NCBI GenBank assembly: GCA_002269645.1
Contig: NIVC01001518.1
Coordinates: 186,001-250,000 of the forward strand
Direction: 5' to 3'
DNA length: 64,000 nucleotides
DNA from: Macrostomum lignano
Lineage: Eukaryota
Below are positions 11,287 to 41,760 of this stretch, piece by piece; the stretch's first letter is position 1; each line of letters opens with the position of its first letter. The notes beneath the pieces are model-generated. The model ran no database searches, was not told where the DNA came from, and saw only the letters and a list, made by a program, of their open reading frames with translations. The translations under genes and the position numbers were made by a program.

Positions 11287-12296
11287 TTGAGCTGTTTGTT
11301 GTCTTCGAGTGGAATATAAAAGTTGCTTTAAGAGTTACCAATAGGCCACTTGCTTAAGCTATCAAGTTAATATTCTGGAATCAAGTGTCGGCTGGTATTT
11401 AGTCTGAAGATGTGGGCTAATAGGGTTGATGAAGCTCGGCTTCACCCTTGAGCAGCTTTTCTAGCGCAGACCGACCTGTCTCTCAATCTGTGTCTATGGC
11501 CTCAACGCACTGAACAGATTCTGCAACATTAACTACTCAGTTTTACACTAAAATTTTAATTTCATAATATCGAGTATGCTAACGTTATGAAGAGCATTAC
11601 TGTCAGTGGTATATTGAAGATCAAGCATTCCTTTGACGGAGCTATTTGTTGAAAGTATTAGCCAATTGTATCGTATGAATTATTAGTTCAGTACCAGCCA
11701 TTGGTCAAGCGAACATTTATGAAGTTATTACGAGTGAAGAAGGGATAGAGAGCTACAGGAAGACCATCTCCTTCTAAACCACCACGAACAGATTGCTAAT
11801 AGAGATAAGCTTTGTCTGTGTGCAGTATGAGTAAGCGAAGGCGGGGCAAATACTTTTCCACATGCCAGACAGGCAGTATTGTGCTAGGATTTCTCTCGAA
11901 GATGAAATCTCGGTACGTTATTAGTTTTTATCACACCATCCAGATGAGCCAACTAGTCAACAGTAGTCATTTATATGTTATTAGACCTTACAAACCCAGG
12001 TCAGGTAAATATTACAGAGTATTACGTGCACACGCCAACCCCGAATACCAAGCCATACTAGTCTACCTGCAGTACTCCCAGAGGGAAGGGAAGGTCAGGA
12101 GTTACACACCAAGAATGCATTCATACAAAGAGTACACCGCTCGAGCCCAGACACCAAGTCACAGTCTACTTACAGTAGAGATGGTAGATTATTAGCAAGA
12201 TTATATTACAATTAGACCTCCCAAGCACATGAGGAGCGAAATTCAATAATAATACAACATTTAGACGTAGTAATTTAATACCGCTAACGACATTGA

Positions 12297-12870
12297 CTTT
12301 CACAAGCGCTAAACTTCACAAACGCTAAACTTCACAATAGCGAAAGCACCTACTTTCACAAGCGCTAAACTTCACAAGCGCTAAACTTCACAAGCGCTAA
12401 ACTTCACAAACGCTAATCTTCACAAACGCTAAACTTCACAACCGCTAAAACAAAAATTTCGCCTACTTTCACAAACGCTAACCTTTACAATCCCCAAAAC
12501 ACGAATGTCGGCTTCTTTTACAAGCGCTAAAATGTTAGTATACTATAATAATTTCCCTGTCTACTTTGAAAGTTTTGAAGTTTAATTTAACGTTTAGCGT
12601 TTGTGAAGTTTAGCGCTTGTGAAAGTAGCCGACATTTGTGTTTTGGCGTTTGTGAAGTTTAGCGTTTGTGAAGATTAGCGTTTGTGAAGTTTAGCGCTTG
12701 TGAAGTTTAGCGCTTGTGAAAGTAGCCGACATTTGTGTTTTAGCGGTTGTGAAGTTTAGCGTTTGTGAAGTTTAGCGTTTGTGAAGATTAGCGTTTGTGA
12801 AGTTTAGCGCTTGTGAAGTTTAGCGCTTGTGAAAGTAGGTGAGTTAGCGCTTATAAAAATTAGCGCTTGT
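12297..12870. mobile_element. Foldback/MITE-like palindrome made of 16-bp subrepeats (CTTCACAAGCGCTAAA)
   Basis: Left arm ~12297-12530 carries the unit on +, right arm ~12594-12870 carries its reverse complement (tttagcgcttgtgaag), with an AT-rich spacer between. No TSD identified. Confidence 0.7.
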
Positions 12871-12986
12871 GAAGCCTCCCCTACATATCGGGAGGGTGTA
12901 CATATCGGGAGGGTGCGCCTGCGGCTGGACGGCGCTTGGCGCCACGCGTAGTGATTTAGTCATTTAGTAGTGACGTTCAGACGTTC

Positions 12987-12992
12987 CTAGTG
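12987..12992 (+). other. 6-bp target-site duplication CTAGTG (left copy; right copy at 44132-44137)
   Basis: gttcCTAGTG|agtagaagg ... ccttctact|CTAGTGcaagcc; 6-bp TSDs are characteristic of Polinton integrases. Confidence 0.9.
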
Positions 12993-13893
12993 AGTAGAAG
13001 GCATGAGGGGGCTTTTGGGACAAAATTTTTCACGTCCTCCATAATTCCATTAAATCCATCTATATTATCCCCGACAGAATCAGAAAAAAAGGGGGGTCGC
13101 ACTCGCTCACAAAACGTCCTCCATAATCCCATTAAATCCATCCATATTATCCCTGACAGAATCAGAGCATAACAGGTGTCCTACTTGCTCCGAAAACTTC
13201 GAACATAATCCCATTAAATCCATCCATATTATTCCTGAATCAGAGCATAACAGGTGTCGCACTCGCTCACAAAACGTCATCCATAATCCTCCTTCCTCCA
13301 CGACAGAATCAGAGCATAACAAGTGTCCTACATCATCCACTGAAATCCACCCATAGCATCTTCGAAACAATCAGAAAAGAATCTGTATTCTTCTCCACAC
13401 ATTCAATTCGCAACGCATCCCAAAGATTTTAAATCATCAGCGCAGTGTCCTTACCCTTTGAAAAAAATTAAATTCTCAATAAAAATGTTTCCAGTTGTCT
13501 CTCCAGGTTCCTATTATACTCAGCCTCATCCATTGTACAAATCCAAGTACCGATGTAAACTAGAATGCAGCGAGTACATGAGAAAATATTGGCCCGATGT
13601 TCAAATCAATGTCCCTAATATTAATCTAGCTCTCCAAAGACATTGGTTTCATAAGTATGGAGTAACCTATGTAAAAGATTATGACAGCTACTATAACTTT
13701 GCAGAAATCATTAGGCAATTGTGATTTCTTACATTCTCTCAATGATCAACGTCAATACAAACTCTTCACCGTTGAAATCAACGCCCATCCCATCTTCAGT
13801 CTCAAACTGTAGCACAATCTCGTGAATCTCCTTATTACTCAATACAACTCTTTTCACTGGATTTGGTTTCTCTACCACCATCTGTCCTCCAGC
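12993..13893 (+). repeat. Left terminal inverted repeat (~900 bp) with internal repeats (ccataatcccattaaatccatccatattat...acagaatcagagcataacaggtgtc)
   Basis: Its reverse complement is found in pieces at 27597-27772, 29434-29486 and 43579-44131. Confidence 0.85.
13485..13724 (+). CDS. 79-aa Tyr-rich hypothetical protein encoded inside the TIR
   Basis: Homologous intact ORF at 26248-26487(-) differs by many synonymous changes; A-rich leader before the ATG. Confidence 0.75.
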   Translation: MFPVVSPGSYYTQPHPLYKSKYRCKLECSEYMRKYWPDVQINVPNINLALQRHWFHKYGVTYVKDYDSYYNFAEIIRQL

Positions 13894-14592
13894 AACAGAG
13901 TTGGAGATGTTGTACAAAATATTCGTTCGCTTTCCCTTAAATACCCAATCAAGACTGAGATTAGTTCTGATTAGAATATTCAAACCCTTTACAATGTCTG
14001 CTATATTGGGTGCTAAGAACAAACCGCGTACGTTTTCCCGGGCCATGATAACGGCCCCCGTCGCTTGAGTGACAGTCCGCGCTGTGGATTCTGCCTTATA
14101 AACTTTCTTCACGAATCCCAATTCCCTATACCAAGTGTCATCTTTAAACTCAACCTCCGCATCTTTGTGAACTTGCATGACCACTCTCATTACAGTGAGA
14201 TCATAGGTTAGTTTGACAGGGAACAATTTTTTATCTGGCTTACTCGCATCAGGTGTCTCAAAATGGCCTCTTTTAGTAAAGACGTTTTCTAGAAAGTAAT
14301 TGTAGGTATCCACACTTTGCGTGCTCACAGGGAATACCACAGGGTCTGCTGCTGCACCTTTCCAATTGTAATAAAACTTATTATTTGCTGCCGACACATT
14401 GGGAACGTTTGACCAACCAGTGAAGTCGTTAAGATAGACATGGTAATTAGCACCTGGATCCAGGCGAATCGCCTGCTCTAATTTTTGAATAAATATCCCG
14501 TTTGAGTCATTTATTCGCCCAGTTATTGTAATAGGAATGCTCTCCTTGGAGTGCGAAATAATATTATTTAGTCTTTCAGCAATCGCTTCCAT
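13729..14592 (-). CDS. Minor capsid protein (penton-like, single jelly roll)
   Basis: N-terminal F..WSNVPNV...NNKFYY and C-terminal F.TEDG..VDFNGEEFVLTL patterns typical of Polinton minor capsid proteins; adjacent to the MCP; intact 287 aa. Confidence 0.8.
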   Translation of the reverse strand: MEAIAERLNNIISHSKESIPITITGRINDSNGIFIQKLEQAIRLDPGANYHVYLNDFTGWSNVPNVSAANNKFYYNWKGAAADPVVFPVSTQSVDTYNYFLENVFTKRGHFETPDASKPDKKLFPVKLTYDLTVMRVVMQVHKDAEVEFKDDTWYRELGFVKKVYKAESTARTVTQATGAVIMARENVRGLFLAPNIADIVKGLNILIRTNLSLDWVFKGKRTNILYNISNSVAGGQMVVEKPNPVKRVVLSNKEIHEIVLQFETEDGMGVDFNGEEFVLTLIIERM

Positions 14593-14614
14593 TTTTTTTC
14601 ACATAAAAAAATAT

Positions 14615-15901
14615 TTAAACTTTACTGGATGAATTGTTGATCATGTTAAGCTTCACCTTCCTCTCAAATGCATAGATAATGTACAGGTCCACGGGTGTTG
14701 CGGTAGTCCTCTCAATGTTAGTCACGATATTCACAGGGCTGTTATCAGTAGGTATTTGTCTGGCAGACACATCAGCGCCAAACATCGGATATAGAGTTCC
14801 ATATTGAAGAGCAGTGATAGCAATTCCATTGTTCTCTTTCACAGCCAAGTCGACCAACTCACTATAAAATTTGCTAATCTTGTTCTGACTGAAATCTCCA
14901 TTTTGTGGCAGTGCAGGGTAAAGATTATCACTGATTTCATGCTGAATGGACCGCACGTCTCCATGCATGTAGCGTATAATGCTATTTGGGTTTCTCATAT
15001 TAATAATGATATACCTTGGATTGCTGCATGATCCCTCTTTAATGCAGATATTTGTTCTAGTTTCGTTTCGCTCATCTCGACACATGTAGGCTGTGTATGC
15101 AACATCAATGTCCTTCTCTATTGCCTTAAGATAATCCGCTTTTAGTGCAGTCTTTGGCTCAATGACTTCCAAATACAGCTCGATTCCGGTTAGCTTCACC
15201 TCCATCCTTGTGTGGTCCGCCCCAGTCCACAACACTCTACTGCGATCATCTCTAGTCAGTCTAAATGTGTAGCTAAAGTTACTAGTCAGTCGATTAAATG
15301 TATTACAGAATCCACTCATGAATCTCAATGGTACAAATACATCAACAGACCGATACTGCGGGTTCTTAGCAGCATCATCTGCACCTTGCAATGCATAGTT
15401 GTATCTCTTCTTCCTATTTTTATAACCACTGTCATTGATATCTCCTTCTTTTTCGTCTGCAATAAAACCCGCACCACTTCCCAATTGAATAAAATCAGGA
15501 TTCTCAATCAAACAATGAGCGTCATAGACAATTCCAAAGTTGGCGATTCGCTCCAACTCAGTGCTCCCATTCGATACACTAAACTCCTTGAACATGTACG
15601 CCCAAAAGTTACTGATCAGAGCCACATCCGCATCATGCTTGTCAACGTTAGCACGAGCCGCATCCACACCACCCTTTGTCTTGAATTGAAATGTCATATG
15701 GAAGCCGCTCTTAAGACTGTGCACACTAACCAAAGACGAACATCCATTGTATGTAAATGTCAGTGTTTGGCCAGGACCAAGATTAGTTTCATTCTGATTT
15801 TCCTGACTGGGAACTCTTACCTGAGTCGCTTTGATTGTGCTATCATCACTCAAAATAGGCTTGTTAATTTTGTAGAAAACTGGTGTCAGTGGGTCGTTCA
15901 T
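14615..15901 (-). CDS. Major capsid protein (double jelly roll, hexon-like)
   Basis: 428 aa, tandem with the penton gene; patterns VFVPLRF..GFC..F..L, F.LTRDD...L, LYP..P..GDF and YPMFG.DVS resemble Polinton MCPs. Confidence 0.8.
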   Translation of the reverse strand: MNDPLTPVFYKINKPILSDDSTIKATQVRVPSQENQNETNLGPGQTLTFTYNGCSSLVSVHSLKSGFHMTFQFKTKGGVDAARANVDKHDADVALISNFWAYMFKEFSVSNGSTELERIANFGIVYDAHCLIENPDFIQLGSGAGFIADEKEGDINDSGYKNRKKRYNYALQGADDAAKNPQYRSVDVFVPLRFMSGFCNTFNRLTSNFSYTFRLTRDDRSRVLWTGADHTRMEVKLTGIELYLEVIEPKTALKADYLKAIEKDIDVAYTAYMCRDERNETRTNICIKEGSCSNPRYIIINMRNPNSIIRYMHGDVRSIQHEISDNLYPALPQNGDFSQNKISKFYSELVDLAVKENNGIAITALQYGTLYPMFGADVSARQIPTDNSPVNIVTNIERTTATPVDLYIIYAFERKVKLNMINNSSSKV

Positions 15902-15931
15902 TTTTTAACTAAAAATAAAATAAAATAAGAA

Positions 15932-17296
15932 ATGAAGCGAAAAAGTACACAGCAGATATCTGAATTGGAGAAGCTAGCACAAGCAGAGAAACGAGTTACC
16001 GGGCTAATAAATAAGGAGCAACAATCCTACAATGAGTTTGTCCAAGCAGCCACAGAGTTTCATAAACCCGGGTATGGAGAAGCGAAGAAAAACATCGACA
16101 CTGTGAAGGAAGCAATTGATGATATTCAAGAGAGCCAATTGCAAAACACATTGGGTAAAATTCCATCTTCACCGGGACAACCACAGGCTCAGGAACCAGG
16201 ACAACCAGTGCAGATGAAAGTGACGGATAACTTTTTTGGCCCCGTAGTGGATGATGGAAAATATATATTTGGAATTAGCGCTTGGCGAAAAAATATTACC
16301 GGGGAACCGGCGGATTACAACCTTGAAGTGACAAAGGATGATATTTCAATCAATAAAGGCGCAAAAACTAAACGAATCCCCTTCACTCAAAGTTTACTCG
16401 ACTACATGACTAAAAATCAGGAAAAAATATCCGAGAAGCAATTAAAGAATTATAGAGATCTGGTTACCTTCGCTTTAGAGAGGGACATAGACATTCTCAA
16501 GAACAACGGTGTTTTGAAAGTTTTACATGAAAACAGGATTGACTTGAACAGGTTAAGAAAATACAAATACTTTAAACAATGGTTTGGTTTGCCGGATCAA
16601 GAAGAGGTCATAAGACAACAACAGCAGCAACCACAACAGCAGCAACCACAACAGCAACAACCAAAACAACAACTACAACAACCACAACAGCAGCAACCAC
16701 AAACACAACCACAACCACAACAACCTCCACCGCCACAGTAACAAATCACACCCGAACAAGTACTAGAAGCGCTTGAAAAAGCAGGGCCAAATGAGATTTC
16801 CCAGTACAGAAACCAGCGCCCAGATGAATGGCGACAATTAGAACAGTTCTCCCCAGAACGAATGAAGCGAATCAATGACAGAGTATTCACACCTCAACAA
16901 AGACAAGCGCCACATGACAGTTCCTCCTCTGACCAATCATTCGAATCACCTCCAAGCTCTTCCGGAAAAGGCATGCCTGAATTCTACAAGCGGTTAGCTG
17001 TTCTTCTAGGAGCGGCAAAGACTGGAATGAAAGATGAGAATAGAAAAGAGTTCGTTCATATCCTAGACAAAATGCTTGAGAGAAAATATATCGATAAAAG
17101 AGCAAGAGAACTTTTGCTTTCACGGTTTAACAAAAAAATAAATTTCTATTTAAAAAGATGCCAATTATTTTCGAAAAAGACATTGACAAATACTATGACA
17201 AAGAGGAACTTAATCTCATTAAACGCGGATCTGGACTTTTCCCTGCAGGCCACTATCCAAGAAAAGAACGCTCTGGGAATGGCCTTGCCGATTTGA
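15932..17296 (+). pseudogene. Polinton protein with Q/P-rich tract; ORFs 15932-16741 and 16862-17296 are one frame interrupted by a single TAA
   Basis: CCA CAG TAA CAA ATC continues in frame with no further stop into KRLAVLLGAAKTG...EF..ILDKMLE..YI, a motif type seen in conserved Polinton ORFs. The true 3' end is uncertain. Confidence 0.6.
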
Positions 17297-17538
17297 TCGC
17301 TCAGGGGGCCAAGATTTTTAAGGTCATTGGAGAGAACAAAGAGAACATCAAGAACGTTGCCGAAGCGGCTGGCAGTGTAGTCACAGCAGCCAAGAAGATT
17401 AAAGATACGGTTAATGAAACCCAGAAATCAATACCAGATATTCAACCCCTTGCACCGAGTGCAGATAGTGTCGATCCAGCCATCTACGCAAAGATGAGAG
17501 CTGAATATAAGAAAGGAGGCGGTTTTAAATTTGACTAA
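17158..17538 (+). CDS. Small basic putative virion core protein with Gly motifs (GSGL, GNGL, GGGF)
   Basis: Intact 126-aa ORF between capsid and ATPase genes; the Gly motifs resemble adenain-type cleavage sites (inference). Confidence 0.55.
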   Translation: MPIIFEKDIDKYYDKEELNLIKRGSGLFPAGHYPRKERSGNGLADLIAQGAKIFKVIGENKENIKNVAEAAGSVVTAAKKIKDTVNETQKSIPDIQPLAPSADSVDPAIYAKMRAEYKKGGGFKFD

Positions 17539-17733
17539 TTTGGTGCACCCTGACGGTAAAAGAGGTGTGAGGGTGTAGGACTAGTCGGATGTAGGACTAG
17601 TCGAAAAAAGACACACACAACCCGAAAAAAGACACACACATCCCGCAAAGAGACACACATACACATCCCGCAAAGAGACACACGCGTCTTAAATACACAA
17701 GTTTAAAAAGAAAAAGTTTTTTTACATAAAAAA

Positions 17734-18255
17734 ATGGACTTCACAAACGACTTTCATCCCCACTGGACACGCAATCAGATAAAATTTGCTCACAACGAGA
17801 TAATTCCAGGGCACTTCCGATGCATTGTTGTTGGCTCATCTGGGTCAGGGAAAACCTTCAGAGTTTTTAACATGCTCCTCAGACCTGGATTCCTCGATTA
17901 TGACACACTACATATCTATTCACCCACTCTGTATCAAGATGAGTATAAAATGCTAGTAGCGGGCCTACAGAACAAACTCAACAAGGAAGATATTATTCAA
18001 TGTTTTAGACATCAAAAAGACCTCAACAGCAACCCGGAAGTTGCAGCCACCGAACACGCAAAGCACATCCCAGACAATGAAAAATGGCAAAATATTAAAG
18101 TTTTCACTTATGGAGATCCACAGATAGATCCTAAAACTAAACTCTTACCTCAACCTGATGAACTAGAAAAGGGGAGAAAGCACCTGATTGTCTTTGATGA
18201 CTGCATGACCGGTCCCCAGAAACAGATAGAAAATTATTTCACCCAAACCCAATGA
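17734..18255 (+). pseudogene. A32/FtsK-like packaging ATPase, 3'-truncated
   Basis: Walker A VVGSSGSGKT and Walker B LIVFDD; the frame ends at YFTQTQ*, before the expected RH motif. Confidence 0.88.
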
Positions 18256-18404
18256 GATCCTGGCTTATCGGTGGTGTCAAAGTTCATGATGCCGCATTCC
18301 TTTCTTAGAGGAAAATCAGGCAGAGTGTCCCTCATAAATATTCCTCTAAAGTTTGGGATTTCCAGTTCGTTAGCCAAATCTTCAAGAAAGTTATTTGTTG
18401 TCAT
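18234..18404 (-). pseudogene. Adenain-like cysteine protease, N-terminal 56 aa only (not in the ORF track)
   Basis: MTTNNFLEDLANELEIPNFRGIFMRDTLPDFPLRKECGIMNFDTTDKPGSHWVWVK*: FRG.FMRD.LP, ECGI.N.D and GSHW (catalytic His) motifs. Confidence 0.85.
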
Positions 18405-18471
18405 TTTTTATGAGGTTTATTAAACTTTCTCTTAAACCTAAACCCAATCTCCTAATCTCCAGTGCCCGAAT

Positions 18472-21400
18472 CTAACCTCCACCTCCTAAGCCTAATTTCC
18501 GGTGCCCGAACGGTAGACTGTTAATATTGTCATCAAAAATGAATCTCTTGTTATCTGCACCTGACAGTCCAATCTCCTTTTGCTGAATTGTGTGAATAAT
18601 ATGGTTTTTAGATTGTAGCTTTGAGAACTCATGTGATGTCTTTTTGTTGCAATTCAAGGCGTCTCTGTATTCAGCTTCATTAATTTCCTTCCTAACCATA
18701 CGTTTCGGAATTCCCTTTGATTTTTTAATTGGGTCTGACGACTCACATTTTACAAAATAGGACTTTGCTCTCAACCCAATGAATTCAGTGATTATGTCAC
18801 CAGCAATCTCGTCCTTCATTTTCCCAATCACTTTCTTGTTAGTGGCGTCAAACACTTGATCGCCATTCTGTGTCCTGCAAGATTCATCATACTCAGACAA
18901 GTCAAACAAATCTTTTTGCTGCAGCATGTCCTGATAAATGTCTTCTGTTTGAATGTCCATAATAAAACTGTCTGTGTCGGTGTACAAGAGTTTCATTTTA
19001 TCCTTGTACTGCTGCTTCATGCCATAGAAGAACTGGTACATCAGACGTTTTGATTCGTCGAGAACAGTGACACCTGTATAGATCGGCTTGCGCAGCGTCA
19101 CCTTGGTTTTGTAAAATATGATCACACCTAAGTAGCTATTAAAGATATGGAGTTCTTTGAATGTTGGCTTTGACATATTTGCCTGAATAACAGCAGGCTC
19201 TGATGAGGTAACAAGTTTCAGGTTTGTTCTTTTCCGCTCTTTCTCAAGAGTCTTGCCATAGACAGAGTTGTTGGCTAACTTAAAGAGGTTCTTGTCAAAA
19301 TCGTTGGTTGCTTTGGTCCTAAACTGGGTATTCTTATCAATGTAGGGTTTCATCCACGCTTCCTCTGTAAATGTAAGAGCCCTGTGAACTTTGGTGACCC
19401 TGCAACCAAGTGAGATAAAATACTGAAGCAGTTTGTAATGGATTTTGTAACGTGTCTTGTTGTTTAGATTCTGTGTTAGTTTCTCTGTATGTTCTTTTTC
19501 TGTTCCTGACAGGTGCCAAGTTCCATTATTATCATTGGGAGTTTCGATTATTTTCGGGCACTTGATGTTCTCTGGGAAGGGTGGAAAGTCAGAGAAATAG
19601 TCGTGAAGCTCTGGTGGAATGTAAACATCAACCTCATAAATGGCAGCCAATGAAAAGTCCCACTTTAGTTCTGATGAGGGTAGCCATCGAAAATCTCTAA
19701 CTGGAATATCTTGACTCATCGCCCAACCGTAGAGATTATTAGCGTCCAAGTAAGTAATGTAGTTTGAGGGCTGCTCCTTATTGTAAGATTCAATGTAGGG
19801 ATTGTTTGCTTTTGCATACCTGTTAACACAAATTGAGATCCCCCCTCGCTTTGACGATTCGACAAAATTGTACATGTCAATATCTGTAAGAAGTTCAATG
19901 TACCAATCTGGATCTTGATCCCATTTCATTTTAAGCAAAGATTCCCAGCTAGGGGGCAGGCAGAGACACATAATGTGCTGGATCGAGGCCATATGCTGTG
20001 TACCAGGTGTATCTGAAGGTTTCAAACATATCAGCCAGCAGAAAAACATCTGTGAACAGGTAAAGCAGGTGATACTGGAAGAATTTTTTGACAATTAAAG
20101 TAATTATAGACATGCTTTGCGTGCTCATAGTCTTTGTCAGAGATTCCAGAGTCTGTTAGTTTTGAAAAGAACTTCTCCTGTGGTGGTAAACCTTCTTCAA
20201 ATACGTGATAACCAGTAATATTCTCATAGGGGTAGAAGCCTTTCTTTCTTAAAAGTTTAAATGATTCATCAGTGTTGTTAATTTTACTTGCAAACATCTT
20301 TGTATATGTACATTGTTCATCTTTTAGATTCTTGCTTAGTTCGTCTAGACTGGCAGCTAGAAATTGATATGAATCCTTCAGTCTTATTTTACCTGTACCC
20401 GAATTATCCTGTTTAATATCAACACACTTAAACTTCTCCTTGTTCTCTGCGATGCAATCAAGGTGTATGTCTGGAATCATGCCGATTTTTTCAACTATTA
20501 AATGCATGTCATAGTTCTTTGCGTTGTGACAAAATATCGTTAGATCATGAATGTTCGATTTTAGCTTTAGATTACAGGTGTTATGCGCTGCACCTCTAAA
20601 TTTCCCAGTAAAGTGGCAGTGGTCTCTAACGGTCGGGTTTTTAATATTAGTGCAAGTTAAATGTTTCCTGCAGATGTGGCAATGAGTTGCTGATAGGAAA
20701 TTGTTTTCATCCTCCTCAGTCATCATTATTGGAACAGGTTGAAGGGTGCTAATCACTCTTTGCAACTCTAACATTCTGGCAATAAACTGCTCCACACACT
20801 GCTCTCCAAAGAAATAATTATACTCAACAAGTCCTTTTGTAGTAATAAAGGCATATGCTACTGAATTGGGGACATGTTTTTGAGTTTGAGTTTGTTTTTG
20901 AGTTTGTTTTTGTGTTTCCGGCATGATTGAGCATTCGAAATCAGCATATACAACAAATGGGAGCTTCTCCATCTTGTGATAGTTCTTAAACCGGAGATAC
21001 TTCTTTTCAGCTGAAGGAAGAGAGCAGTTTGTTGGGTGATCCTCGCATGATAATTCATGCTCTGCTAGTTTTTCAAAGCGTTCAGGTCCACTGTAATGCT
21101 TAAGGCACAAGCGGCAGATGGCAACAGCCTCGTGATGATTATTCAACTGCTTGTGAATGAGTCTTGAAAGATCTTTAATCCAAACATAGTGAGCCTCCTC
21201 TAGTAAATTACCAATCACTAGAAGATCCACTTCAGTCGGCCTTTTCCCCTCAGGATCTAAAACGTCTTTGCTACATCTGACCGGTTGAACTTTCTCAGTT
21301 TTTTCACTCCACTCAAAGACTGTGATTCTAATTTTGTTATTAAACACTTCTTCTAGCTTTGGGATCTGAGAGATCGCCAAGCCTCCTTTGTCAAACCTGA

Positions 21401-22307
21401 TTCCCTTCTTTTCGCATTCGATGAGATAGTAGTTGAAATAATTTTGATAATTTGAGGTTCTTTCGGGGTGGTGAGGGACACTATCATAAAGAAGTGCAGA
21501 AAGAACTGCCCATAGAGCACAGCAATTGTCTTTATTTTTAACATTTATGCAAGCTTTTTTACCGGCTAGCTTATGCGGGAGCTCTATATAAGAGGAGGCT
21601 TTAAGTGGGTCATATTTCATGACCATGACAGTCGCTCTTTGAATCCCTCCCACGACCCATCCGGAACCTCTGGATGTAAACGCTTCAATTTTCTTAGTGA
21701 CATCTTGAAGGAAAGGATCCAGTGTGTCTGTTGGGGTGAATGGCTTTGCCTTTGTTGTCATGTAATACTCGAGATGCTCAGTGGGTTTCGCAGGCATATA
21801 AAACGCAATCTTGAATTATATCTGTAGTTTAAAGGTCTTGCGTGTTTTGAGTGTGTGATCAACAACTGATTGGATGCTGTCTTTATAGTCGTAGATGTTT
21901 GCGGTGGTATCCTTAATTGGGATTGTGTACTCTATGTAATGTTCTGTAAACTTCCTCTCTTCAATGGCAAGCTCCGACTCTTTTAAATGGATTAATTGCT
22001 CTAATTTCTCTTGTTCCTGCTTATTTTGTGGGTACTTTGCTTTTTCACCAGTGAGAGTTTCGTATTTGTTAACTAAGTTGCGACTCCTCTCTTGGTGTTC
22101 CTTTGCAGGATTTTTTATAGGCGCATACTGGTTGGATTCTAATTGATTGATGATTTCCAACTGTTTTTCATAGCTTCCCAGGTGACCAGGGTCGGTGTTG
22201 AACTTTTGTTTGCATGCTTCTCTTAGTGAATTACTTTTGTCTTAAAATGAGACGCCTTTTGAAAAATGTTTGTTGACTAAATCTTTTGCTGGATTAGCTT
22301 TTGGCAT
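18472..22307 (-). pseudogene. pPolB: Protein-primed family B DNA polymerase, disrupted
   Basis: ExoI YADFE, ExoII HNAKNYD, ExoIII YHLLYLFTD (in a third frame), DANNLYGWAM, KLANNSVYGK and YTDTDS; RDHCHFTG..RGAAH..CN zinc motif. Frameshifts at ~19955, ~20088 and ~22255; in-frame stops at 21816 and near 22240. Confidence 0.95.
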
Positions 22308-22433
22308 TTTTTTCTCTAAAATAAAGAAAAAATTTTTGAGGGTGACCACCCTGATAGAAAAGTTGAACTGTTTCTACATCCTATAAGTAGCGCTAGGTTT
22401 ATAAAGCTGGATAAAGTGGGGTTTTAAACCTCA

Positions 22434-22879
22434 TCACATCCGCATTATTGTAAACCCAGCATTGTGCAGTGTCATGATGGCTTTGACAATGTCAGACTTG
22501 CTTACAGAATTTTCATTCTCACAATCATCACGATCGGGGCAGCCCTCTCCTGCCTTAATTGTTATACCTTTGTCTCTTGCAATCTTTTGCAATTCAAGCT
22601 GGTGGGCCCTATCATTCCCAGCTTTAACAGCAGTTGCTACACCTCCAGCTACACCACCTGCGGCACTTACAGCGCCTGCAATGATCGGAATAAGAGCTGC
22701 TAATGGTAGGATTCCTCCTGACTTTTCATCTGTGATGTTGTGTCTTTGCTCATTACACTCAAGTATTTGCTGTGTGGGATCAACCTTAACTTTGACACCT
22801 TTAATTGATATAAGATCTGGTTCTTTGATTCAATGATTTTATTGAGTTTATTGATGGTTCTAGTTTCAATCTTTGTCAT
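22434..22879 (-). pseudogene. pX/pVI-like precursor with GG|ILPLAALIP amphipathic peptide; one frameshift near 22830 (not in the ORF track)
   Basis: Minus frame reads DEKSGGILPLAALIPIIAGAVSAAGGVAGGVATAVKAG...KIARDKG...FTIMRM*; the ATG at 22879 is in another frame. Confidence 0.7.
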
Positions 22880-22895
22880 TTTTTATTTTAATATT

Positions 22896-23890
22896 TTAAT
22901 TAATTTCCGTGTCAGCTGGTATCACTAGGAGTTCAGCTCTAGTGAATGACCGCGTGGGGGATTTAGGGTTAAAGGCCTGAGATAAAAAGTAATAGTCACC
23001 GGAGTCGGAGGTAAAATGTCTGTCTATTTTATGTACATCAAGGCTGAAGTATGGATCTGTAGCTCTTCTTTTGGTGTCCTTCTCTAGCTCTCCAGGTAGA
23101 TATAAAAAGCGTAGAAACTCAGAGTTTGTCAGTATGTATGGTGATTCAACTCCTGGAAGCTTAGGGTAGTTCGAGGTGTCTGTTCTATGAGATGACTTAA
23201 GTTCGACAGTGTCTTGTTTAATTGCATGGGATGGTTTCAATCCAGTCATGCGTGTGACTTCATTGTTCAGTTGCTCTATAACAGTGGGGAGCCGGTCTGA
23301 CCACTTGTATAGTACTGACCACTTTTTAGTTTCAGCTCTTCAGCTGTCTGCTTAGTGAATAGCCTCTTGGCTAGAGTTAGATTGAATCTTTCCACAAAAG
23401 CCTGGTCTCTGTGTAGCTCAGTTCTTCCATAGCGAATTTTTGTGTCATGCTTATGTAGAAGTGATTTCACTGCACCCATGAATTCATTACCCGGGTCCGT
23501 CATAAAGATTTCAGGGTAACTAAGGGGTGAGTTTTTATAAATATCTTGAAGGGCGGCTGCAACTGCTTCTGATTGTTTAGTCTTCAGCGGTCTTGCTTCC
23601 TTATAGCGGGAGGCAATATCTATAACTGTGAGAGCATACTTGTAACCTGAGTCATTGGGGAGAAACAATAAGTCTGCTTGGTGTGCCTCATTGGGTTTAT
23701 AGATGTTAAAGTGAGGTCTCGTAAATTGAACAGGTGGGAAATAGACTTAAAAGACAGCCTGCTTAGAGAGCCACTTTTCTACTTTAGCTTTTGGTTCCTT
23801 ACTTAGTTCTGCGAGTTTGGTGACGGCATTTTTTCCTACAAAGAATCCTTTGTCACTGTAGTAGAGTTTTTTAAGTTTCTGGTCTGTCAT
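22896..23890 (-). pseudogene. int: Retroviral-like DDE integrase of the Polinton
   Basis: HQADL(L)FLP, TVIDIASRY, MTDPGNEF and VERFNLT; premature TAA near 23747 and a frameshift near 23300. Confidence 0.92.
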
Positions 23891-23920
23891 TTTTTAAAAA
23901 AGAAAGTTTTAAATAAAATA

Positions 23921-24370
23921 ATGCAACGCTCTGGTGGTAAAATAGATTCACATGGACTGATAGAAAAGCTTCCTCATCCAAACAAAGGCTGGACAGTTCC
24001 AGGGTACAAATATTGTGGGCCTTTGAATCCACTTGAAATACAGTTAGATAAAAACAATAATCCAAATCCTGGGCATGAGCCTGTGAACGAGCTAGACTCT
24101 GTCTGCATGTGGCATGACATCAAGTATAGAGATTTTCCTGAGGAGAAGAATCGGTGGGACAAAGAAATGCTTAGGAGATTAGACCATATGGGGGCTTCAA
24201 GCGGATTTCGTGAGTCGATTGCTAGGAAATTAGTCAAGGCGGTTATTTTTGGAAAGACAAAATTGGGGTTGGGGGTGTACGCCGAGGGCGGGGTGGGCTT
24301 TGTATTGCACGCACCAAGTAAAAAACTAGGCAGACTGCTGAAAGAGCTGGGGGTTGAGAGAGCAGAATGA
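23921..24370 (+). CDS. Phospholipase A2 domain protein of parvovirus VP1u type
   Basis: VPGYKYCGP (Ca-binding loop), PVNELD...C..HDIKY (catalytic HD) and D..ML..L; intact 149 aa. Confidence 0.85.
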   Translation: MQRSGGKIDSHGLIEKLPHPNKGWTVPGYKYCGPLNPLEIQLDKNNNPNPGHEPVNELDSVCMWHDIKYRDFPEEKNRWDKEMLRRLDHMGASSGFRESIARKLVKAVIFGKTKLGLGVYAEGGVGFVLHAPSKKLGRLLKELGVERAE

Positions 24371-24400
24371 TTCAAGCAAGAATATTCAGCTCATTCTTTT

Positions 24401-24505
24401 GAGAGACAACTGGAAACATTTTTAGAGAAATTATTTTTTTCGGAGGATGAGCACCCTGGGTTTAGGTAATTAAAGTCTTTGGGATCTGGTTTCGCGAATT
24501 GAATG
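24401..24505 (-). repeat. Degenerate relic of the inner TIR segment around the TIR-ORF start
   Basis: gagagacaactggaaacatt...aaagtctttgggatct...gaattgaatg matches 26470-26584 and 43608-43711. Confidence 0.65.
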
Positions 24506-24644
24506 ATCGACCTTACTATATGTACTAAATTAAAGGAAGACTTCCAAAATTTATATTAATAATTAACTATTAAAAAACAATATATTTGAAATTAAATAAG
24601 ATAAAAATTTAAATTAAGAGAAATACCGAGAATGTTCAGTGTAG

Positions 24645-24895
24645 TTATAGAAAAATTGTAACTTTTCCTGATCGTTCAGGATTTTTATTCAGGATTTTTT
24701 TTCAGACATGAACATTACTAACTACTAACAGTAGAAAAATCGCAACTTTTCCTGATCGTTCAGGATTTTTATTCAGGATTTTTTTTCAGACATTAAAATT
24801 ACAAACTACTAACAGTAGAAAAATCGCAACTTTTCCTGATCGTTCAGGATTTTTATTCAGGATTTGTTAGTTCCTGAAGTAACAGTAGAAAAATC
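24645..24895. repeat. 84-bp tandem repeat x3, each with the palindrome CCTGA-tcgt-TCAGG
   Basis: aacttttcctgatcgttcagg starts at 24660, 24744 and 24828. Confidence 0.85.
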
Positions 24896-24932
24896 TTAAC
24901 TTAACATTCAAGAGTAAATAAAATAAATAATG

Positions 24933-25773
24933 TTATTCATCTACTACCGAAGCGTTATTCCATTCCATATTTGTTTCGTCCAACAGATCGTCATCTTCTT
25001 CTCCTTCAAATACAATCTCCAAATCAACCTCTAGTTTCGAACAAAAATTGTCGTCTTGGTCGGCTTCTTTTTCGATCGTTTTCTTAAACGCTAACAACGT
25101 CTCCATTGAGTATCCAGTCAACGCCAGATTAGGATATTTTCTCATAAGATTATGGAATGTGAATAGCCGCTCGGCAAACTTTATCCCAATGTCCAACCGC
25201 TTGGCCGCCACTTCTGTGCTCACCCCTAGTTGATTTTTCAGTTCGGCCAGAACTTCAGCCTGCTTTTTCCTGGCCAAACAGCTAAGTGTTTCTATCTCGG
25301 CGATGGACATTTCAAGGGTGTTGAATTGCAGTCGTTTGCCGTCCACATCAGCTTGAACAGGTCCCATACAAAGATTTTTAGCCTCGGAGAACCTAAAGGA
25401 AAGAATATTGGATCATAATGTGAATAAGGTCAAAGGTTTGCTTGCAAAAATATCCAATCTATGTCCAATTTCTAAAAATAAGCAAGACTTACCTCGTTTT
25501 AATCACCAGCTGTTCGTTTTTTATTGAATTAATTTTTTGCTTCAAGCGAGCTAAAAACCGAGCTTTCCGGTCTTCTTTATCTTGAGTACAAGATTTCTCT
25601 TTCTCCGAACGCTCTTTTCTTATAGAATTTACGTCTACTTTTTGTAAAAATTTTAAAAGTAAAGCTCTTTCGTGATTTTCTAGATTAGCAATGGCGATTG
25701 CCGTACTGGCGGAATCTTTACTACTAATACTCCTTAGCGTATTCAGAATTTTTACAGCGTCGCTGGAACTCAT
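24933..25773 (-). CDS. Intact two-exon gene (25773-25493, 25392-24933), 246-aa hypothetical protein with charged N-terminus, possible helical/HTH region and acidic tail
   Basis: Donor AG|GTAAGT and acceptor cctttag|G join the two track ORFs in frame (...VIKTR FSEAKNLC MGPVQ...); 100-nt intron. Confidence 0.75.
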
Positions 25774-25840
25774 GACAAGGCGGAGCGGACCCTGCCGGCG
25801 GGGTAGGCGGGCTGGGGCGAGGGGCGGTGTGAATCGGCTG

Positions 25841-25848
25841 TTTATATA
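25841..25848 (-). promoter_or_regulatory. Candidate TATA box (TATATAAA) for the two-exon gene
   Basis: Lies ~70 nt upstream of the ATG at 25773, with CCAAT just upstream. Confidence 0.45.
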
Positions 25849-26247
25849 CCATTGGTGTGGGCTCGGGAATCCATGGATTCTAGAATATTCTAGAATAAGG
25901 GAAACCCACAGATTTTCTACTTATAGCCAGTATTTTCTATTAATGGTTGATTGGGGTTGCCTGGGAAAGATCTAGGAAGACTGCTGAAAGAGTTGGGGGG
26001 TTGAGAAGGTTGGGGGTTTAAACAAGGAACTAAATGGGCGTTTCTGAAGCTAGGCAAGGGATCCTTTGAGCTAGTTAAGGCTTGAGCTGGGCAAGCTTTT
26101 TCTCTATGCTGCACACGCCGCTCGCGCTATGATAAGAAACAGCTGCCATACCCATTCCGCTATCACCCACCCACCACACAGCAAAATACCATGCGTAAAA
26201 ATATCTATTAATGCAGTCTTAGTCTTAAAGCGTATTGTAGCGACATT

Positions 26248-26487
26248 CTACAATTGCCTAATGATTTCTGCAAAGTTATAGTAGCTGTCGTAATCTTTTA
26301 CGTAGGTTATTCCATACTTATGAAACCAGTGTCTTTGGAGAGCTAGATTAATATTAGGGACATTGATATCAACGTCGGGCCAATATTTTCTCATGTATTC
26401 GCTGCATTCAAGTTTGCATTGGTACTTACTCTTGTAATTAGGCTCGTGCGCTTTGTAATAAGAACCTGGAGAGACAGCTGGAAACAT
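26248..26487 (-). CDS. Second, diverged copy of the 79-aa TIR protein
   Basis: MFPAVSPGSYY...NFAEIIRQL, intact. Confidence 0.75.
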   Translation of the reverse strand: MFPAVSPGSYYKAHEPNYKSKYQCKLECSEYMRKYWPDVDINVPNINLALQRHWFHKYGITYVKDYDSYYNFAEIIRQL

Positions 26488-26952
26488 TTTTTTTATTGAG
26501 AATTTAATTTTTTCTCAAAGGGTGAGGACCCTGCGCTGATGATTTAAAGTCTTTGGGATCTGATTTCGCCGCTTCGGATTGAATGTGGGCCCCATGGGGA
26601 GAAGAATGCAGATTTTTTTCTGATTGTTTCGAAGATGCTATGGGTGGATGTCAGTGGATTATGTCAGTGTCAGTGAGCATAACAGGTGTCCACTGTCTGA
26701 TTCTGTCGGGGATAATATGGATGGATTTAATAGGATTATGTTCGAAGTTTTCAGAGCAAGTGCGACCGCTCCCCTTTTTCAAGATTCTGTCAGGGATAAT
26801 ATGGATGGATTTAGGTGGATTATGGAGGATGTTTTGTGAGCGAGTGCGACCCCCCTTTTTTCTGATTCTGTCAGGGATAATACGGATGGATTTAATGGGA
26901 TTATGGAGGAGGTGAAAAATTTTGTCCCAGAAGCCCCCTCATGCATTCTACT
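26248..26952 (-). repeat. Diverged orphan TIR from a sister Polinton subfamily, ending CTACT, with no matching TSD
   Basis: Clearly similar to 12993-13724 but more diverged than the 43579-44131 copy; flank cgtctg differs from CTAGTG. Confidence 0.85.
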
Positions 26953-27596
26953 CGTCTGCATTGTCGGCAAATGGGGTTTCTCTTTTAAGGCGTTTTACAG
27001 TCTCCAAACACTTATCTCTTCCAATCTCGGCGGCTCTCCGCCTCGTTATTATTGTAGCAAGTCCTGCCATCTCGTCAGCTTGAGCAAGGAATTATAGGCG
27101 TGGTAGAGTGTGGTAGTGGAAAAAATGCAGTGCTGAGGAGAAATTAAATGTAGTCCCATTATATTAGGTAAAGGAGGAGGGGGGGGAGTATTTGGATTGT
27201 TAAGAAAGAGAGTGCGTGACTGGAGGTGGAAAGAGATTTTCAGTACAGTGGAACCCGCGCAGTGCAGCTAGAGGAATAGAATAGGTAAGTTTCCTATTTC
27301 AGGACAATAGAGACTGCATACTTTTTCATGTTATGGAGAGGAATTGAATAGGTAAGTTCCCTTTTTGAAGACAATAGAGACTGCGTACATCGAAAATGCA
27401 TTTCCCAGTATTTGAGGCAGTTTTCCGACAGTTTTCCGACAGTTTCTGTTGAGCAAAAAAATTCTGACAGTTTGTCAGATACTTGTCGCAAACAAAAACC
27501 CAATATCTACTAATAGTAGTCCTCCCTTTTCAAGAACAATAGAGTAATGTACACAGAGTACACTTAGCAGTAATAGTCGAAGACCAGAGAGAGTGA

Positions 27597-27772
27597 GCTG
27601 GAGGACAGATGCTGGTAGAGAAACCAAATCCAGTGAAAAGAGTTGTATTGAGTAATAAGGAGATTCACGAGATTGTGCTACAGTTTGAGACTGAAGATGG
27701 GATGGGTGTTGATTTCAACGGTGAAGAGTTTGTATTGACGTTGATCATTTAGAGAATGTAAGAAATCACAAT
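27597..27772 (+). repeat. Right TIR, innermost piece (inverted copy of 13718-13893, the penton 3' end)
   Basis: Near-identical reverse complement of the penton 3' sequence. Confidence 0.85.
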
Positions 27773-29433
27773 TGTAGTAGGGGGGTTTAGTTCAAGCAGT
27801 TTTGCTAAAGGCGTTTGCTATTCGTCGGGATGAATTATTTTAGTAGCATGAAGTCTAGAATAAGCAGTTTTGCTTTTACGCTACTGACAGTAGTTCACCC
27901 TCGGGGAAATATCTGAAGTTGTGGGAATTCGAGTATTAGTATTCGAGTTTCAATCCTGTGAAACTTGTCTCTGCCTGTCTGAAAGCTTGTAATGAGTTAG
28001 TAGGCTGGGTTGGAGGGTAATAGTGGATCGGGAAGGGCTGTGGGTAGCTGTATAGGAAGGCAGGCCTATACCTGTACCAAGGTGCTCTGACGGTATCCCT
28101 CAGGCGCCCTCTGAGCGTACAGCCAGCGACCCTATTAAAGCTGGAGTGTGCCAGAACCAGGACTGAGTCTGAGCAGGACGAGACCGTTGGCACGGTCACA
28201 ATAGAAATGGCGGGTTGGCGAAGCAAAGGGTGAAATAGTCCCGGCGATTAGCCCTCCTGCCGCTTCAAAGATAAGAGACTGTCTGTTGGCAAGAGTACCC
28301 GGGGTTTAGTTGGGGGGAGGCTCCTTCGGGTTGCCACGGCCGTGGGGAGCGGTCAAATGACCGGCATTGGCTTTTCTAACCCAGGAGTAGGCACGGGCTT
28401 CCCTGAATGGTTCTCTCAACCCCCACTGGCCTCGGGGAGGTTTATGATTTGTACCCGGGGGTAGAGGGGCGGTCGGCCCCAGCATGGTTGCCACGGCTCT
28501 AGGCCTTCGGGCCATCTCTAATAGGCTAAGGGGCTTTCTAACCTGGTCTGTGGGCACGGGCTTCCTGACTGGTTCGTCGAACCGCTACTGTCCCCCGGGG
28601 AGGTTTGGTTTTTTTGATACTGCCCTGTACAGTCCTCTATAGTCTAACTTGGCTTTTAGTGTACATTAGTACACTCCCAATCAGGAATCTAATTTATCTC
28701 TAGTGGCGTAAGAGCCTTTTTACTTAGGCTGAGGCGCCGGAAGCACTTATCATAGTCATATCATAGTCTCGGCAAAAGCATCCGTTCGGGACAATCAGTC
28801 TAGCATCCGTTCAGGACCGTCCATCAGGACAATATTTCAGAGACTAAGTCTCAAAGCACAAACTCAAATATAAGGGAGTCTCCCCTTGTATAAAGATAGA
28901 AATACTAAAAATTCTAAAACAGAAATTAAGGGTAAGTTTAGGGTAAAATAGGAAGGCTAAGAAGGAGTCTACCACTTAGTCAAAACGGAGTCTACCGAAG
29001 AATAGGAATAAATTAAGTAACATAGGGAAAGACTAAAGGAGTCTACCATTGGTCTAAATAGGACATCGGAGTCTACCGAAGTGCTAACATAGGACCTAAT
29101 TGTGTACTTTCTTTGCATATTTGGTTTAATAATATTTCTTTTGTTTGCTTGATTTAAATAATCTTATATGAAATTGACTCTTGTCTCACTTATTTTAATT
29201 TAACATTAATTATAAGGGGCATTAGTCTGGTGGCAGCGACCTACCAAATAAAAAGTACGTAATAGCAGATTAGTAGAGCAAAGTAATCTAGATCGTAACA
29301 ACTATTCATTCAAGTTAAGGTAGCTAGTAAATCTTCTAGCTTAATCTAAGCCCGGAGTCTCTCGAGCTCAGATTAATCAATTTAAAGAAACCAGTAAACC
29401 AGTAGCCTAAACCGCAGGTACCACGCTTGTCCA
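27773..29433. mobile_element. 1.66-kb TG...CA insert with 4-bp duplication CAAT (solo-LTR-like)
   Basis: agaaatcaCAAT|TGTAG...GTCCA|CAATtgcctg interrupts otherwise contiguous TIR sequence; contains a ~160-bp internal tandem duplication (~28330-28610) and ggagtctacc repeats. Confidence 0.55.
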
Positions 29434-29486
29434 CAATTGCCTGATGATTTCTGCAAAGTTATAGTAGCTGTCATAATCTTTTACAT
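29434..29486 (-). repeat. Right TIR, middle piece (inverted copy of 13669-13721)
   Basis: caattgcctgatgatttctgcaaagttatagtagctgtcataatcttttacat. Confidence 0.85.
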
Positions 29487-30013
29487 GATTATGACAGTGA
29501 CCGTTAATTTCAAAAAAAACTTTTCACCCTACTTTAAGTAGTAAGTTGAGGGTACGTAAACTTTTTTACTTTATATATGCTCTTTCCCTATTTGATACAA
29601 TAGCTGCACTTGGCATTCTTCTGTGAACAATAGATTTATTCACTAAACTCATATAAATGTATCATTAGTTATCTTTTAATAACTAGATGTATTTTAGCAC
29701 AGAAACTGAGATATCTTGTGAAGTTATTCTAGCTGCTACTAAACCAATACTTTATGCCATATATTTAGTTTGTCATAATGCTTACTAAAGGAATATACAC
29801 TTATTTGAATTATAGTATAAAAAATTTTTGTATTACCCGTAAACAAAACACGTCAACATTGTTACTGAAAGTACAGCAAAGCCAAAAATATTAGAATATT
29901 AGAACATAAAATTCGAGTATACAAAAAATTCAGCCAGAGCTGCTGAATGATGTAAACATGCTATTAAAGATATGTGTAAGCCCTACATGTATATTAAACA
30001 GACTTTTACTAAG

Positions 30014-32606: not shown

Positions 32607-32986
32607 ATTTGAAATTAAGAGCGTACAAGAATATTTAATAAATTTTTATGTATTATAAGTTAAAAGTCAAACTGATAATAAGCAAGCAAGCAGCTAAGTT
32701 AGCTAAGAAAAAACCAAGAGTAGATGCCAGCTTTGAGCGAATAAACCTGATTCTTTGTAGGTTTCTTAACTGCTTCTCCAATGATCATTGGCCTGCTATC
32801 CTATCCAATCCGAGACCGAGATCCCATTTCACAGCCCGATCTCCAATGCACTGTACACAAAGACTACTAGATAGTAGTGTATTCGTATGGCATGAATTTT
32901 AACTCCAGAAAGTTACGAGTGGCAACTAATGCTATTTTGTTATTTAGAAAGTTATTACTTAATTTATTCTTCATTTTGGTGAGAAA

Positions 32987-34981: not shown

Positions 34982-35160
34982 CTAATGACCACAGTGTGGA
35001 AGCGTAGCACCAGACTTGATTTAGATTGCATAACCATATTCTCAACTTTAATTGAGACTGATGCTGACTTGCCTGGGAAATTGATTATGTCATAACTGCT
35101 TCGTGAGTGAGTGTTGAATTATATGAGTGCTACAATTTCATTTATAAATTCAATAAGATC

Positions 35161-35222
35161 TAGCCTAGAAGTGAACAGACTGGACTGCTAATGCAGCGAC
35201 CTGGGTTCGAATCTTAGTAGTG
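35161..35222 (+). ncRNA. Degenerate tRNA-like sequence (SINE-head/pseudo-tRNA, GCT anticodon loop)
   Basis: A-box-like TAGCCTAG, anticodon arm ctgga-CTGCTAA-tgcag and T arm ctggg-TTCGAAT-cttag; no good acceptor stem. Confidence 0.5.
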
Positions 35223-35272
35223 AAAATTTTTTTATTAAAAGCTTTTATTAAAAAAACAATAAAGGACTAAAG

Positions 35273-40790: not shown

Positions 40791-40969
40791 AACTAATGAA
40801 AGTGTCATTTAAAAAATTAAGAAGCATCATGGTAGAATAAAAGAAGCGTCATGTCAGACATGAAGGGTGTCATGTAAAAATAAATGCAGCTATAATGCTG
40901 TGCTGGGAAGAATTACTGAGACGTCAAGGCTCTCAGAGAATAACTGAGATTACGGGGGGTTGCTGAGAT

Positions 40970-41760
40970 GTCAAAGCAAAAGTCAGAAGCTACTTCAAAG
41001 TTCATGTACTTTACTCAATTTTTTTATTACATTATTTGTTGTCTCGCCACGGGGGGCGCTGATAGAAGAGGAGTCATGTAAAAAATAAAAGTAGCACTAT
41101 GTATACATAAAAGAAAAGTCATGTCGAAGTTAAAAGATTCATTTGGGAATTGCTATGATGTCAAAGCTTGGAGGGAATCGTTACAGTGCTGTGATTCTTA
41201 AAGAAGGAATCACTAAAATGTCAAGGCTTAGGGGAGAAGAATTGCTGAGATTCAAGGCTTTAGGTTGGGTTAAAGTTAGGTTTAGGTCAGGTGTGGGTTG
41301 AGGGTTATATTTTATCGGGTTTCAAGGTTAACGGGGGATTTTTCAGATTTCAAGGTTTATGGAGGCCATCGCTGACATGTCAAGGCTTACGGGGGGAATA
41401 GCTGAGATTTCAAGGCTCACGGGGGTATAAATGAGATTTCAAAGCTAAATTCAGAAGCTACATGTAAACAATCATGTAAAGTTTATTGAAAACTTTTTAT
41501 TACATTATTTGATGCCTCGTCAGGGGAGGGATCGCTGATAAAAAAAGCGTAATGTAAAAAATAAAAGAAGCTTCATGTCGAAGTTAAGAGATTCATTTGG
41601 GAATCCCTACGATGTCGAGGCTTGCAGGAAATCGCTATAATGCTGTAGCAGTGCTATAATGACTCTTAGAGAGAATTACTGAAATGTCAATGCTTTAGGG
41701 TTAGGTTAGGGTTAGGGTTAGGGTTAGGGTTAGGGTTAGGCTAGGGTTAGGGTTAGAAGG
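40970..41760. repeat. Diverged ~475-bp tandem duplication, each unit followed by a TTAGGG-like tract
   Basis: catgtcgaagttaa.agattcatttgggaat occurs at ~41120 and ~41574. Confidence 0.65.
41695..41756 (+). repeat. Interstitial (TTAGGG)n, ~10 units
   Basis: ttagggttaggttagggttagggttaggg... Confidence 0.9.

Follow-up and report, generated by a model that had tools for sequence, protein, structure and literature searches.

A small gene under purifying selection in both terminal inverted repeats of a Macrostomum lignano Polinton family, with a possible likeness to RNase T2

The window analyzed here, a 64,000-nucleotide stretch of Macrostomum lignano DNA (contig NIVC01001518.1, positions 186,001 to 250,000, forward strand), contains a Polinton whose left end begins at 12993, directly after the target-site duplication CTAGTG (12987-12992), which is identical to 44132-44137. 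The left terminal inverted repeat (TIR; 12993-13724, + strand) comprises the terminus AGTAGAAGG, 82-bp tandem units (13032-13289), a putative promoter, and an open reading frame of 79 codons, ORF79 (13485-13724, + strand), which begins 492 nt inward of the terminus. The promoter is suggested by its position and by an A-rich start context common to other element genes. The product of ORF79 has three predicted helices, and its center probably resembles the CAS II region of RNase T2. Tandem units of 16 bp and 97 bp form an imperfect palindrome just beyond the left terminus, outside the element (12296-12874).

Convergent with ORF79, with 4 nt between the two stops, is a putative minor capsid (penton) gene (13729-14592, - strand), assigned by position and size and without a Pfam match. 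The major capsid protein gene follows (14615-15901, - strand; PF21738, E=1.3e-5). The remaining recognizable genes are an A32-type packaging ATPase (17734-18255, + strand; PF04665) that is shortened in the window copy and is 266 aa in sister elements, a protein-primed DNA polymerase B (pPolB) in two frames (18472-21797, - strand; PF03175, E=6e-5, under the cut-off), an adenovirus pX-like ORF (22434-22829, - strand; PF05829, E=5e-7), a frame-broken rve integrase (23276-23890, - strand; PF00665, E=2e-10), and a parvovirus-like PLA2 of the adintovirus PLA2X type (23921-24370, + strand; PF08398, E=5e-13). The adenain-type protease gene of two sister elements has been deleted from the window copy; one sister, C1304, matches both PF04665 (E=7.5e-7) and the adenain protease family PF00770 (E=3.6e-4). 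The element is an adintovirus-type Polinton, as the type is described in passages of PMC8502044. It has AG/AGT termini with a 6-bp target duplication, pPolB together with an rve integrase, and a packaging ATPase together with a double jelly-roll capsid, and the adenain protease is present in C1304.

An internal relic at 24401-24505 (- strand) combines the part of the TIR upstream of ORF79 with the gene's first 19 nt, and is 79% identical to 13400-13503. It suggests an older end that was internalized upon addition of the ORFs at 24933-25367 and 25489-25773. The relic has a counterpart at the same place in element C819, and homologues of the two ORFs, 57% and 40% identical, are found in another Polinton family on C1101. 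Elsewhere in the window, 57584-59848 is a host ORF of 754 aa, cysteine-rich and with many ephrin-receptor-like repeats.

A second copy of ORF79, with a differing N-terminal allele, lies at 26248-26487 (- strand), and the first-pass annotation implied that the two copies mark the ends of one element. The flanking sequences contradict this pairing. Three termini are present in the window: CTAGTG precedes 12993 and also follows 44131, while CGTCTG follows 26952. Across the non-coding TIR, the left end is 99% identical to the 44131 end (487/492, with 49/51 for the ORF piece), versus 89% to the 26952 end (391/440, with 77 gap columns). Because of the common CTAGTG and the identity of 487/492, the right TIR of the element is assigned to 27597-44131; the reading of 12993-26952 as a single element with decayed TIRs is ruled out by the target-site duplication. 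The copy at 26248-26487 and the adjoining non-coding TIR (26488-26952, - strand) thus belong to the end of a second element, whose partner end is absent from the window. The stretch 26953-27596 is taken as remaining interior of the outer element, since part of it adjoins the ORF79 stop in three of nine other loci examined.

In the true right TIR the repeat runs on into the 3' end of the penton gene, of which a duplicate lies at 27597-27774 (+ strand; 175/178 identical to 13716-13893). This TIR is interrupted by what is probably a solo LTR, together with 14 kb of other sequence. The probable LTR (27773-29433; TG...CA, CAAT duplicated) sits at the last codons of a third ORF79 copy, is repeated genome-wide, and has direct copies about 5.1 kb apart on C667. 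This third copy is broken into two pieces with the middle missing: a 3' piece at 29432-29486 (- strand; 54/55 identical to 13669-13723) and a 5' piece (43576-43626) within the right TIR proper (43576-44131, - strand), which is closed by the right duplication CTAGTG (44132-44137). The insertion point of the probable LTR is a CAATTG hexamer, the mark of the TIR inner boundary. Also inside the broken right TIR are a 600-aa ORF without a Pfam match (32987-34789), which we presume to be transposase-like, a 22-bp satellite (35273-40854), and a TTAGGG tract (41695-41756). The simplest reading would be insertion of the second element into the first, followed by recombination between the two. The window illustrates that TIR pairs should be assigned by target-site duplication, not by proximity.

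Comparison of the two complete window copies is consequently a comparison of two alleles from different elements, which is a fair test of selection but not a left-right comparison. Both copies are open over 79 codons, with no indels between them, and they differ at 32 nt across 22 codons. Thirteen of these codons differ synonymously (the TGA/TAG stop included), in agreement with the dozen or so first noticed, and nine carry replacements, five of which fall in codons 12-17. Amino-acid identity is high, as annotated, although the figure is 89% (70/79) rather than about 85%. By the Nei-Gojobori method dS is 0.395 and dN 0.091, giving a dN/dS of 0.23 (Fisher P=1.8e-4) that falls to 0.12 once codons 12-17 are excluded.

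Protein and DNA searches of the genome returned 566-644 first-look candidates for ORF79 ends (roughly 600), of which the best 40-150 were scored; copy counts may include allelic copies of one insertion. Among 59 distinct ungapped ORF79 sequences (from 74 of 85 contexts), pN/pS is 0.28, far from the value near 1 that would speak against selection, while four other frames give 0.84-2.06. Frame -2 gives 0.25, yet contains a mean of 8.6 stops, and its low ratio is expected because third positions are shared. In a set picked by the promoter, pN/pS is 0.44 (19 of 21 distinct sequences, codons 1-52, two non-collinear sequences having been dropped). Over 12 elements the ratio is 0.22 at either end, and nine other element ORFs range from 0.09 to 0.26 (one of them from six elements). 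A net frameshift is found in 6/105 ORF79 copies versus 74/105 of the upstream 150-mers, in a set mostly picked by protein similarity, and 41 of 81 variable sites in ORF79 are at third positions. The sequence pairs in these tests are related and not independent; every control agrees in direction. ORF79 is therefore a real gene, within the range of purifying selection seen for the element's other genes, as the first-pass annotation had proposed for a coding sequence inside the TIR. Its N- and C-terminal alleles are also shuffled among elements: the 112 open copies include all four pairings of two allele blocks, one at codons 12-17 and the other at roughly codons 51-66, indicating recombination between ends.

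The expectation that the gene would be present at both ends of an intact element is borne out, as ORF79 lies within the inverted repeat in all 14 of the two-copy elements fetched, which were chosen for paired hits. In these elements the homology of the repeat often ends at the last codon of ORF79: the inner end is at that codon in four and within 25 nt of it in one, while it lies a few hundred bases beyond in five and the remaining four are fold-back forms. Eleven sister elements have both termini, and their target duplications are perfect 6-bp repeats in nine, match at five of six positions in one, and are absent in one. Many different sequences adjoin the last codon of ORF79, and most yield a stop within 0-7 codons. 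A common class of junction, seen at 26232-26248 and at many other ORF79 copies, starts with a small inverted repeat, TGTAG-N7-CTACA.

Disrupted copies, which would count against the gene if frequent, are not rare. Of 30 ends picked by their terminus, 18 have an open ORF79, eight a broken or truncated one, and four no start; of 30 loci picked by the promoter, 21 are intact, one is extended, and eight are broken. A truncation to 63 aa recurs at four ends representing at least three insertions. Two intact copies are thus not essential, given that 12 of 30 ends lack an open copy and that the 63-aa form is recurrent. The two ORF79 copies of an element differ by 0-1 nt in six of ten elements and by 8-16 nt in the other four. 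The element at C139:29544-45865 (and likewise C819) has a perfect 6-bp duplication, yet identity between its TIRs is only 88.7% and the ORF79 alleles at the two ends differ; it could be a recombinant element, the result of later gene conversion, or an assembly chimera. The fold-back elements (C975, C2140, C3945, and C633) have inverted arms of 4.4-6.2 kb. Target duplications are intact in three of them, the fourth being at a contig edge, and palindromic defective genomes therefore appear to have integrated.

The ORF79 protein is basic (pI 9.1), 14% tyrosine, and 78-80 aa long across the family. No hydrophobic signal was found, the top 15-residue hydropathy being 0.35. Of the two motifs noticed at first, CxxxC holds, as C24 and C28 are invariant across 36 aligned variants, but HWFH does not: W54 and K57 are invariant, while position 56 may be H, E, L, or Y. 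The window protein itself has no Pfam or PDB match. The gene is restricted to this family, with no homologue outside it in a word-index search, in viral contigs, or in metagenome contigs. Three matches at E<0.001 among 1.84 billion representatives were rejected, two being repetitive proteins and the third having no scored stretch. Of seven regions fetched from the same genome, five belong to other Polinton families, and these five contain no homologue, with a best profile score below 7 bits. Fold searches with two low-confidence models (pLDDT 59.6 and 56.1), in both of which three helices are predicted, gave no clear structural match: no T2 chain was listed, and nothing scored above Z 4.0 or below E 1.2. 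These searches weigh neither for nor against a T2 fold.

The view that the protein is without recognizable relatives probably has to be revised, as Atlas, Pfam, and PDB matches all point to the CAS II region of RNase T2. For both allele types, the first-ranked ESM Atlas matches are RNase T2 clusters (0.90 and 0.92; of 256 features, 179 and 178 are common to query and match), and these matches are weak because their recognition values, 1561 and 1663, fall below 2300. PF00445 is matched by 12 of 36 ORF79 variants over profile positions 66-101 of 188, at best with E=0.0031 and 18.1 bits versus a cut-off of 26. The top three PDB matches of an EKHG variant are human RNase T2 (3T0O, E=0.0096) and two actibind entries (E=0.04), with YWPD and the CAS II KHG among the aligned parts; this variant, which gives the best T2 scores, was chosen after the motif had been seen. 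With the family profile, 3T0O is the only PDB match (E=1.2), and a second profile search gives E=0.036. Altogether some 35-40 residues align with RNase T2 (PF00445; 3T0O; Aspergillus actibind 3D3Z), as M-x-x-Y-W-P-D followed by a helix that, in one allele type, ends in H-W-F-E-K-H-G; on the T2 side these residues correspond to CAS II and the segment preceding it. Homology of ORF79 to RNase T2 is, on balance, somewhat favored.

The differences from RNase T2 are substantial. T2 proteins are about 200-250 aa long versus 79 aa, and ORF79 is without CAS I, the signal peptide, the cysteine that follows KHG, and the C-terminal half. No HGLWP-like motif was found in 64 distinct variants, and the only cysteines are C24 and C28. 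The catalytic histidine of CAS II is a tyrosine in the common allele, with K-H-G in 23 and K-Y-G in 88 of 112 open copies, and the position of the catalytic glutamate is W or H, depending on the alignment. On CAS I, signal peptide, and score, which stays under the family cut-off, the protein falls outside the T2 family. T2 activity requires three histidines and one glutamate (PMC7399046), and catalysis requires both CAS segments (PMC2720953, PMC7399046), which makes RNase activity of ORF79 unlikely. Catalysis-independent roles of T2 proteins are known (PMC3400635), and members of the family also occur in giant viruses (PMC7399046).

Recent capture from the host's own T2 genes is rejected at both the protein and the DNA level. 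Host T2 aligns to ORF79 with an hhalign probability of 0.4%, and 321 and 1406 of 3000 shuffles score as high; used as a query, host T2 found no viral locus and only three host proteins. A WPD...EKHG DNA pattern was also tried as a mark of viral homologues and rejected: it occurs in at least 120 stretches of viral contigs, and among those listed 59 matches have the right spacing, almost all of them belonging to a single, unrelated family of phage proteins with scores of about 0 bits. The bare WPD-x17-EKHG motif is thus also present in an unrelated phage protein family. One element of the ORF79 family (C4945:4972-21541, also C3540 and C2606; duplication TGGCTT) is inserted in a host RNase T2 gene, within the tandem-repeat intron that separates the CAS I exon from the next one, in three of four assembled copies, with an empty site on C195. 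The chance of an insertion so near host RNase T2 is 0.3% by a rough uniform estimate made after the fact, and the location may be a coincidence because ORF79 is not detectably similar to that gene.

No sequence record containing ORF79 is typed as RNA. Four runs that contain spliced host mRNA (four GT..AG joints) also include contigs that cover ORF79, the capsid genes, and the non-coding part of the TIR. These contigs are not decisive for expression because traces of DNA or read-through from introns could yield them in a genome with about 600 copies.

Our best explanation, held tentatively, is that ORF79 is a selected accessory gene in both TIRs, likely expressed early, whose protein is likely a non-catalytic T2 remnant that would aid the persistence of the element. 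The gene is oriented inward, convergent with the penton or PLA2 side, and could be read from either end as an early gene, with a promoter in the TIR and double dosage. End-to-end copying during protein-primed replication, by a panhandle or template-switch model as in adenovirus biology, would keep the two copies alike and would also make the extended and fold-back forms. Regeneration of TIRs after truncation has been described for EMALEs (PMC8547959). Catalysis would have been lost along with CAS I, the secretion signal, and the C-terminal half, and the small basic protein could bind RNA or a host RNA-handling partner, thereby protecting the element. For the protein we tentatively favor, at less than even odds, a module derived from T2 that no longer cuts but binds to RNA, or to a host factor that handles it, and so protects the element; a role in RNA binding or as a decoy against host RNA silencing is perhaps a shade more speculative. 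The fullest version, in which a Polinton captured the active-site helix hairpin of RNase T2 and turned it into a 79-residue intracellular RNA-binding decoy, expressed first from a boundary gene in both TIRs, with allele blocks shuffled in an arms race with host RNA silencing, is, taken as a whole, unlikely.

Alternatively, ORF79 could encode an element-specific DNA-binding helper of replication or transcription that acts on the TIRs, its T2 likeness being due to chance. Early end-proximal genes are known from other protein-primed linear replicons, and the location of ORF79 beside the terminus and the 82-bp repeats, its basic, aromatic, three-helix protein, and a constraint like that of core genes would all fit such a helper, as would marginal T2 scores and a dissimilar host T2. 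However, three sequence-based methods converge on RNase T2, and the five regions of other Polinton families have no homologue; because of this absence ORF79 is not a general replication factor. We regard the helper as the main alternative, though a doubtful one. It is less probable that ORF79 is selfish cargo, such as a toxin, an antidote, or an exclusion factor, which would give an advantage to hosts or cells with the element and would be placed in the TIR only by expansion of the repeat. A small gene restricted to one family, with two swappable allele blocks in all four combinations as in host-conflict genes, is what such cargo might look like, and the TIRs do expand readily into neighboring genes (five extended and four fold-back forms among 14); the protein nevertheless matches no Pfam toxin family, and the boundary of the minimal repeat at the last codon is not random. 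An active mini-ribonuclease, whether working by itself, as a dimer, or together with a partner contributing the half that ORF79 lacks, is very improbable: the CAS II lysine is invariant, H53 nearly so, and E-K-H is kept in the 23 of 112 open copies, but there is no CAS I motif, the corresponding N-terminal position has no histidine, tyrosine replaces the absolutely conserved histidine of CAS II in the 88 K-Y-G copies, and W or H takes the place of the catalytic glutamate. That ORF79 is no gene at all, its frame having survived through chance or through constraint on the TIR at the DNA level, is largely refuted and scarcely credible, for although the copies are related, which makes their pairs non-independent, and were mostly chosen by similarity of the protein, the synonymous excess holds in the promoter-picked set, half of the variable sites (41 of 81) are at third positions, and an indel-rich non-coding TIR directly adjoins the frame-preserving ORF.

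In its general features the ORF79 element resembles the Polinton/Maverick elements, or adintoviruses, as described in passages of PMC8502044 and PMC8097293: TIRs starting with AGT, 6-bp duplications, pPolB, rve integrase, A32 ATPase, adenain-type protease (in sister copies), major capsid, PLA2 and pX accessory genes, and a length of about 15-16 kb. Its TIR of about 700 bp falls within the 46-1447 bp reported there. It differs in that the inner third of each TIR is taken up by a dedicated accessory gene of 78-80 aa, which often sets the boundary of the repeat. No TIR gene is mentioned in main-text passages of PMC8097293, 10.1101/2023.08.22.554363, PMC9356565, or 10.64898/2026.07.28.741278. Our literature search, with Repbase and most subscription journals outside its reach, found no paper pairing Polintons with ribonuclease T2; for Macrostomum with Polinton it gave only an unrelated listing, and broader searches gave no closer precedent. 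If the T2 origin is true, ORF79 would represent T2 in the form of a minimal module without catalysis, and would be the first T2-derived Polinton gene that our search found in print. Macrostomum lignano, a laboratory flatworm with hundreds of copies, would allow a direct test of how elements of this kind counter the defenses of their host.

The presence of a gene in a Polinton TIR is already in print, and the initial premise that these repeats are usually treated as non-coding does not stand without exception: according to the relevant part of a preprint (10.1101/2025.02.07.637071), Pieris polintons have TIRs of about 2 kb that hold the hexon and adenain genes, and thus, like the ORF79 family, protein-coding genes in two copies per insertion. 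The Pieris TIR genes are core genes, as in the extended and fold-back variants described above, whereas ORF79 is a non-core gene in a minimal TIR, with its selection measured. We found no published report of a dedicated accessory gene that marks where the repeat ends, or of a Polinton gene resembling T2. A selected gene in the TIR is easily missed because Polinton annotation treats TIRs as boundaries and seeks core genes between them. Among larger viruses, the poxviruses have hairpin ends. The TIRs of poxviruses and other nucleocytoviruses contain duplicated accessory genes and are hot spots of diversity (PMC11296320). Duplicated accessory genes in the terminal repeats are thus common to these viruses and to the ORF79 family, but the viruses are much larger, and here the element is one of 15 kb that integrates and has only one gene in its TIR.
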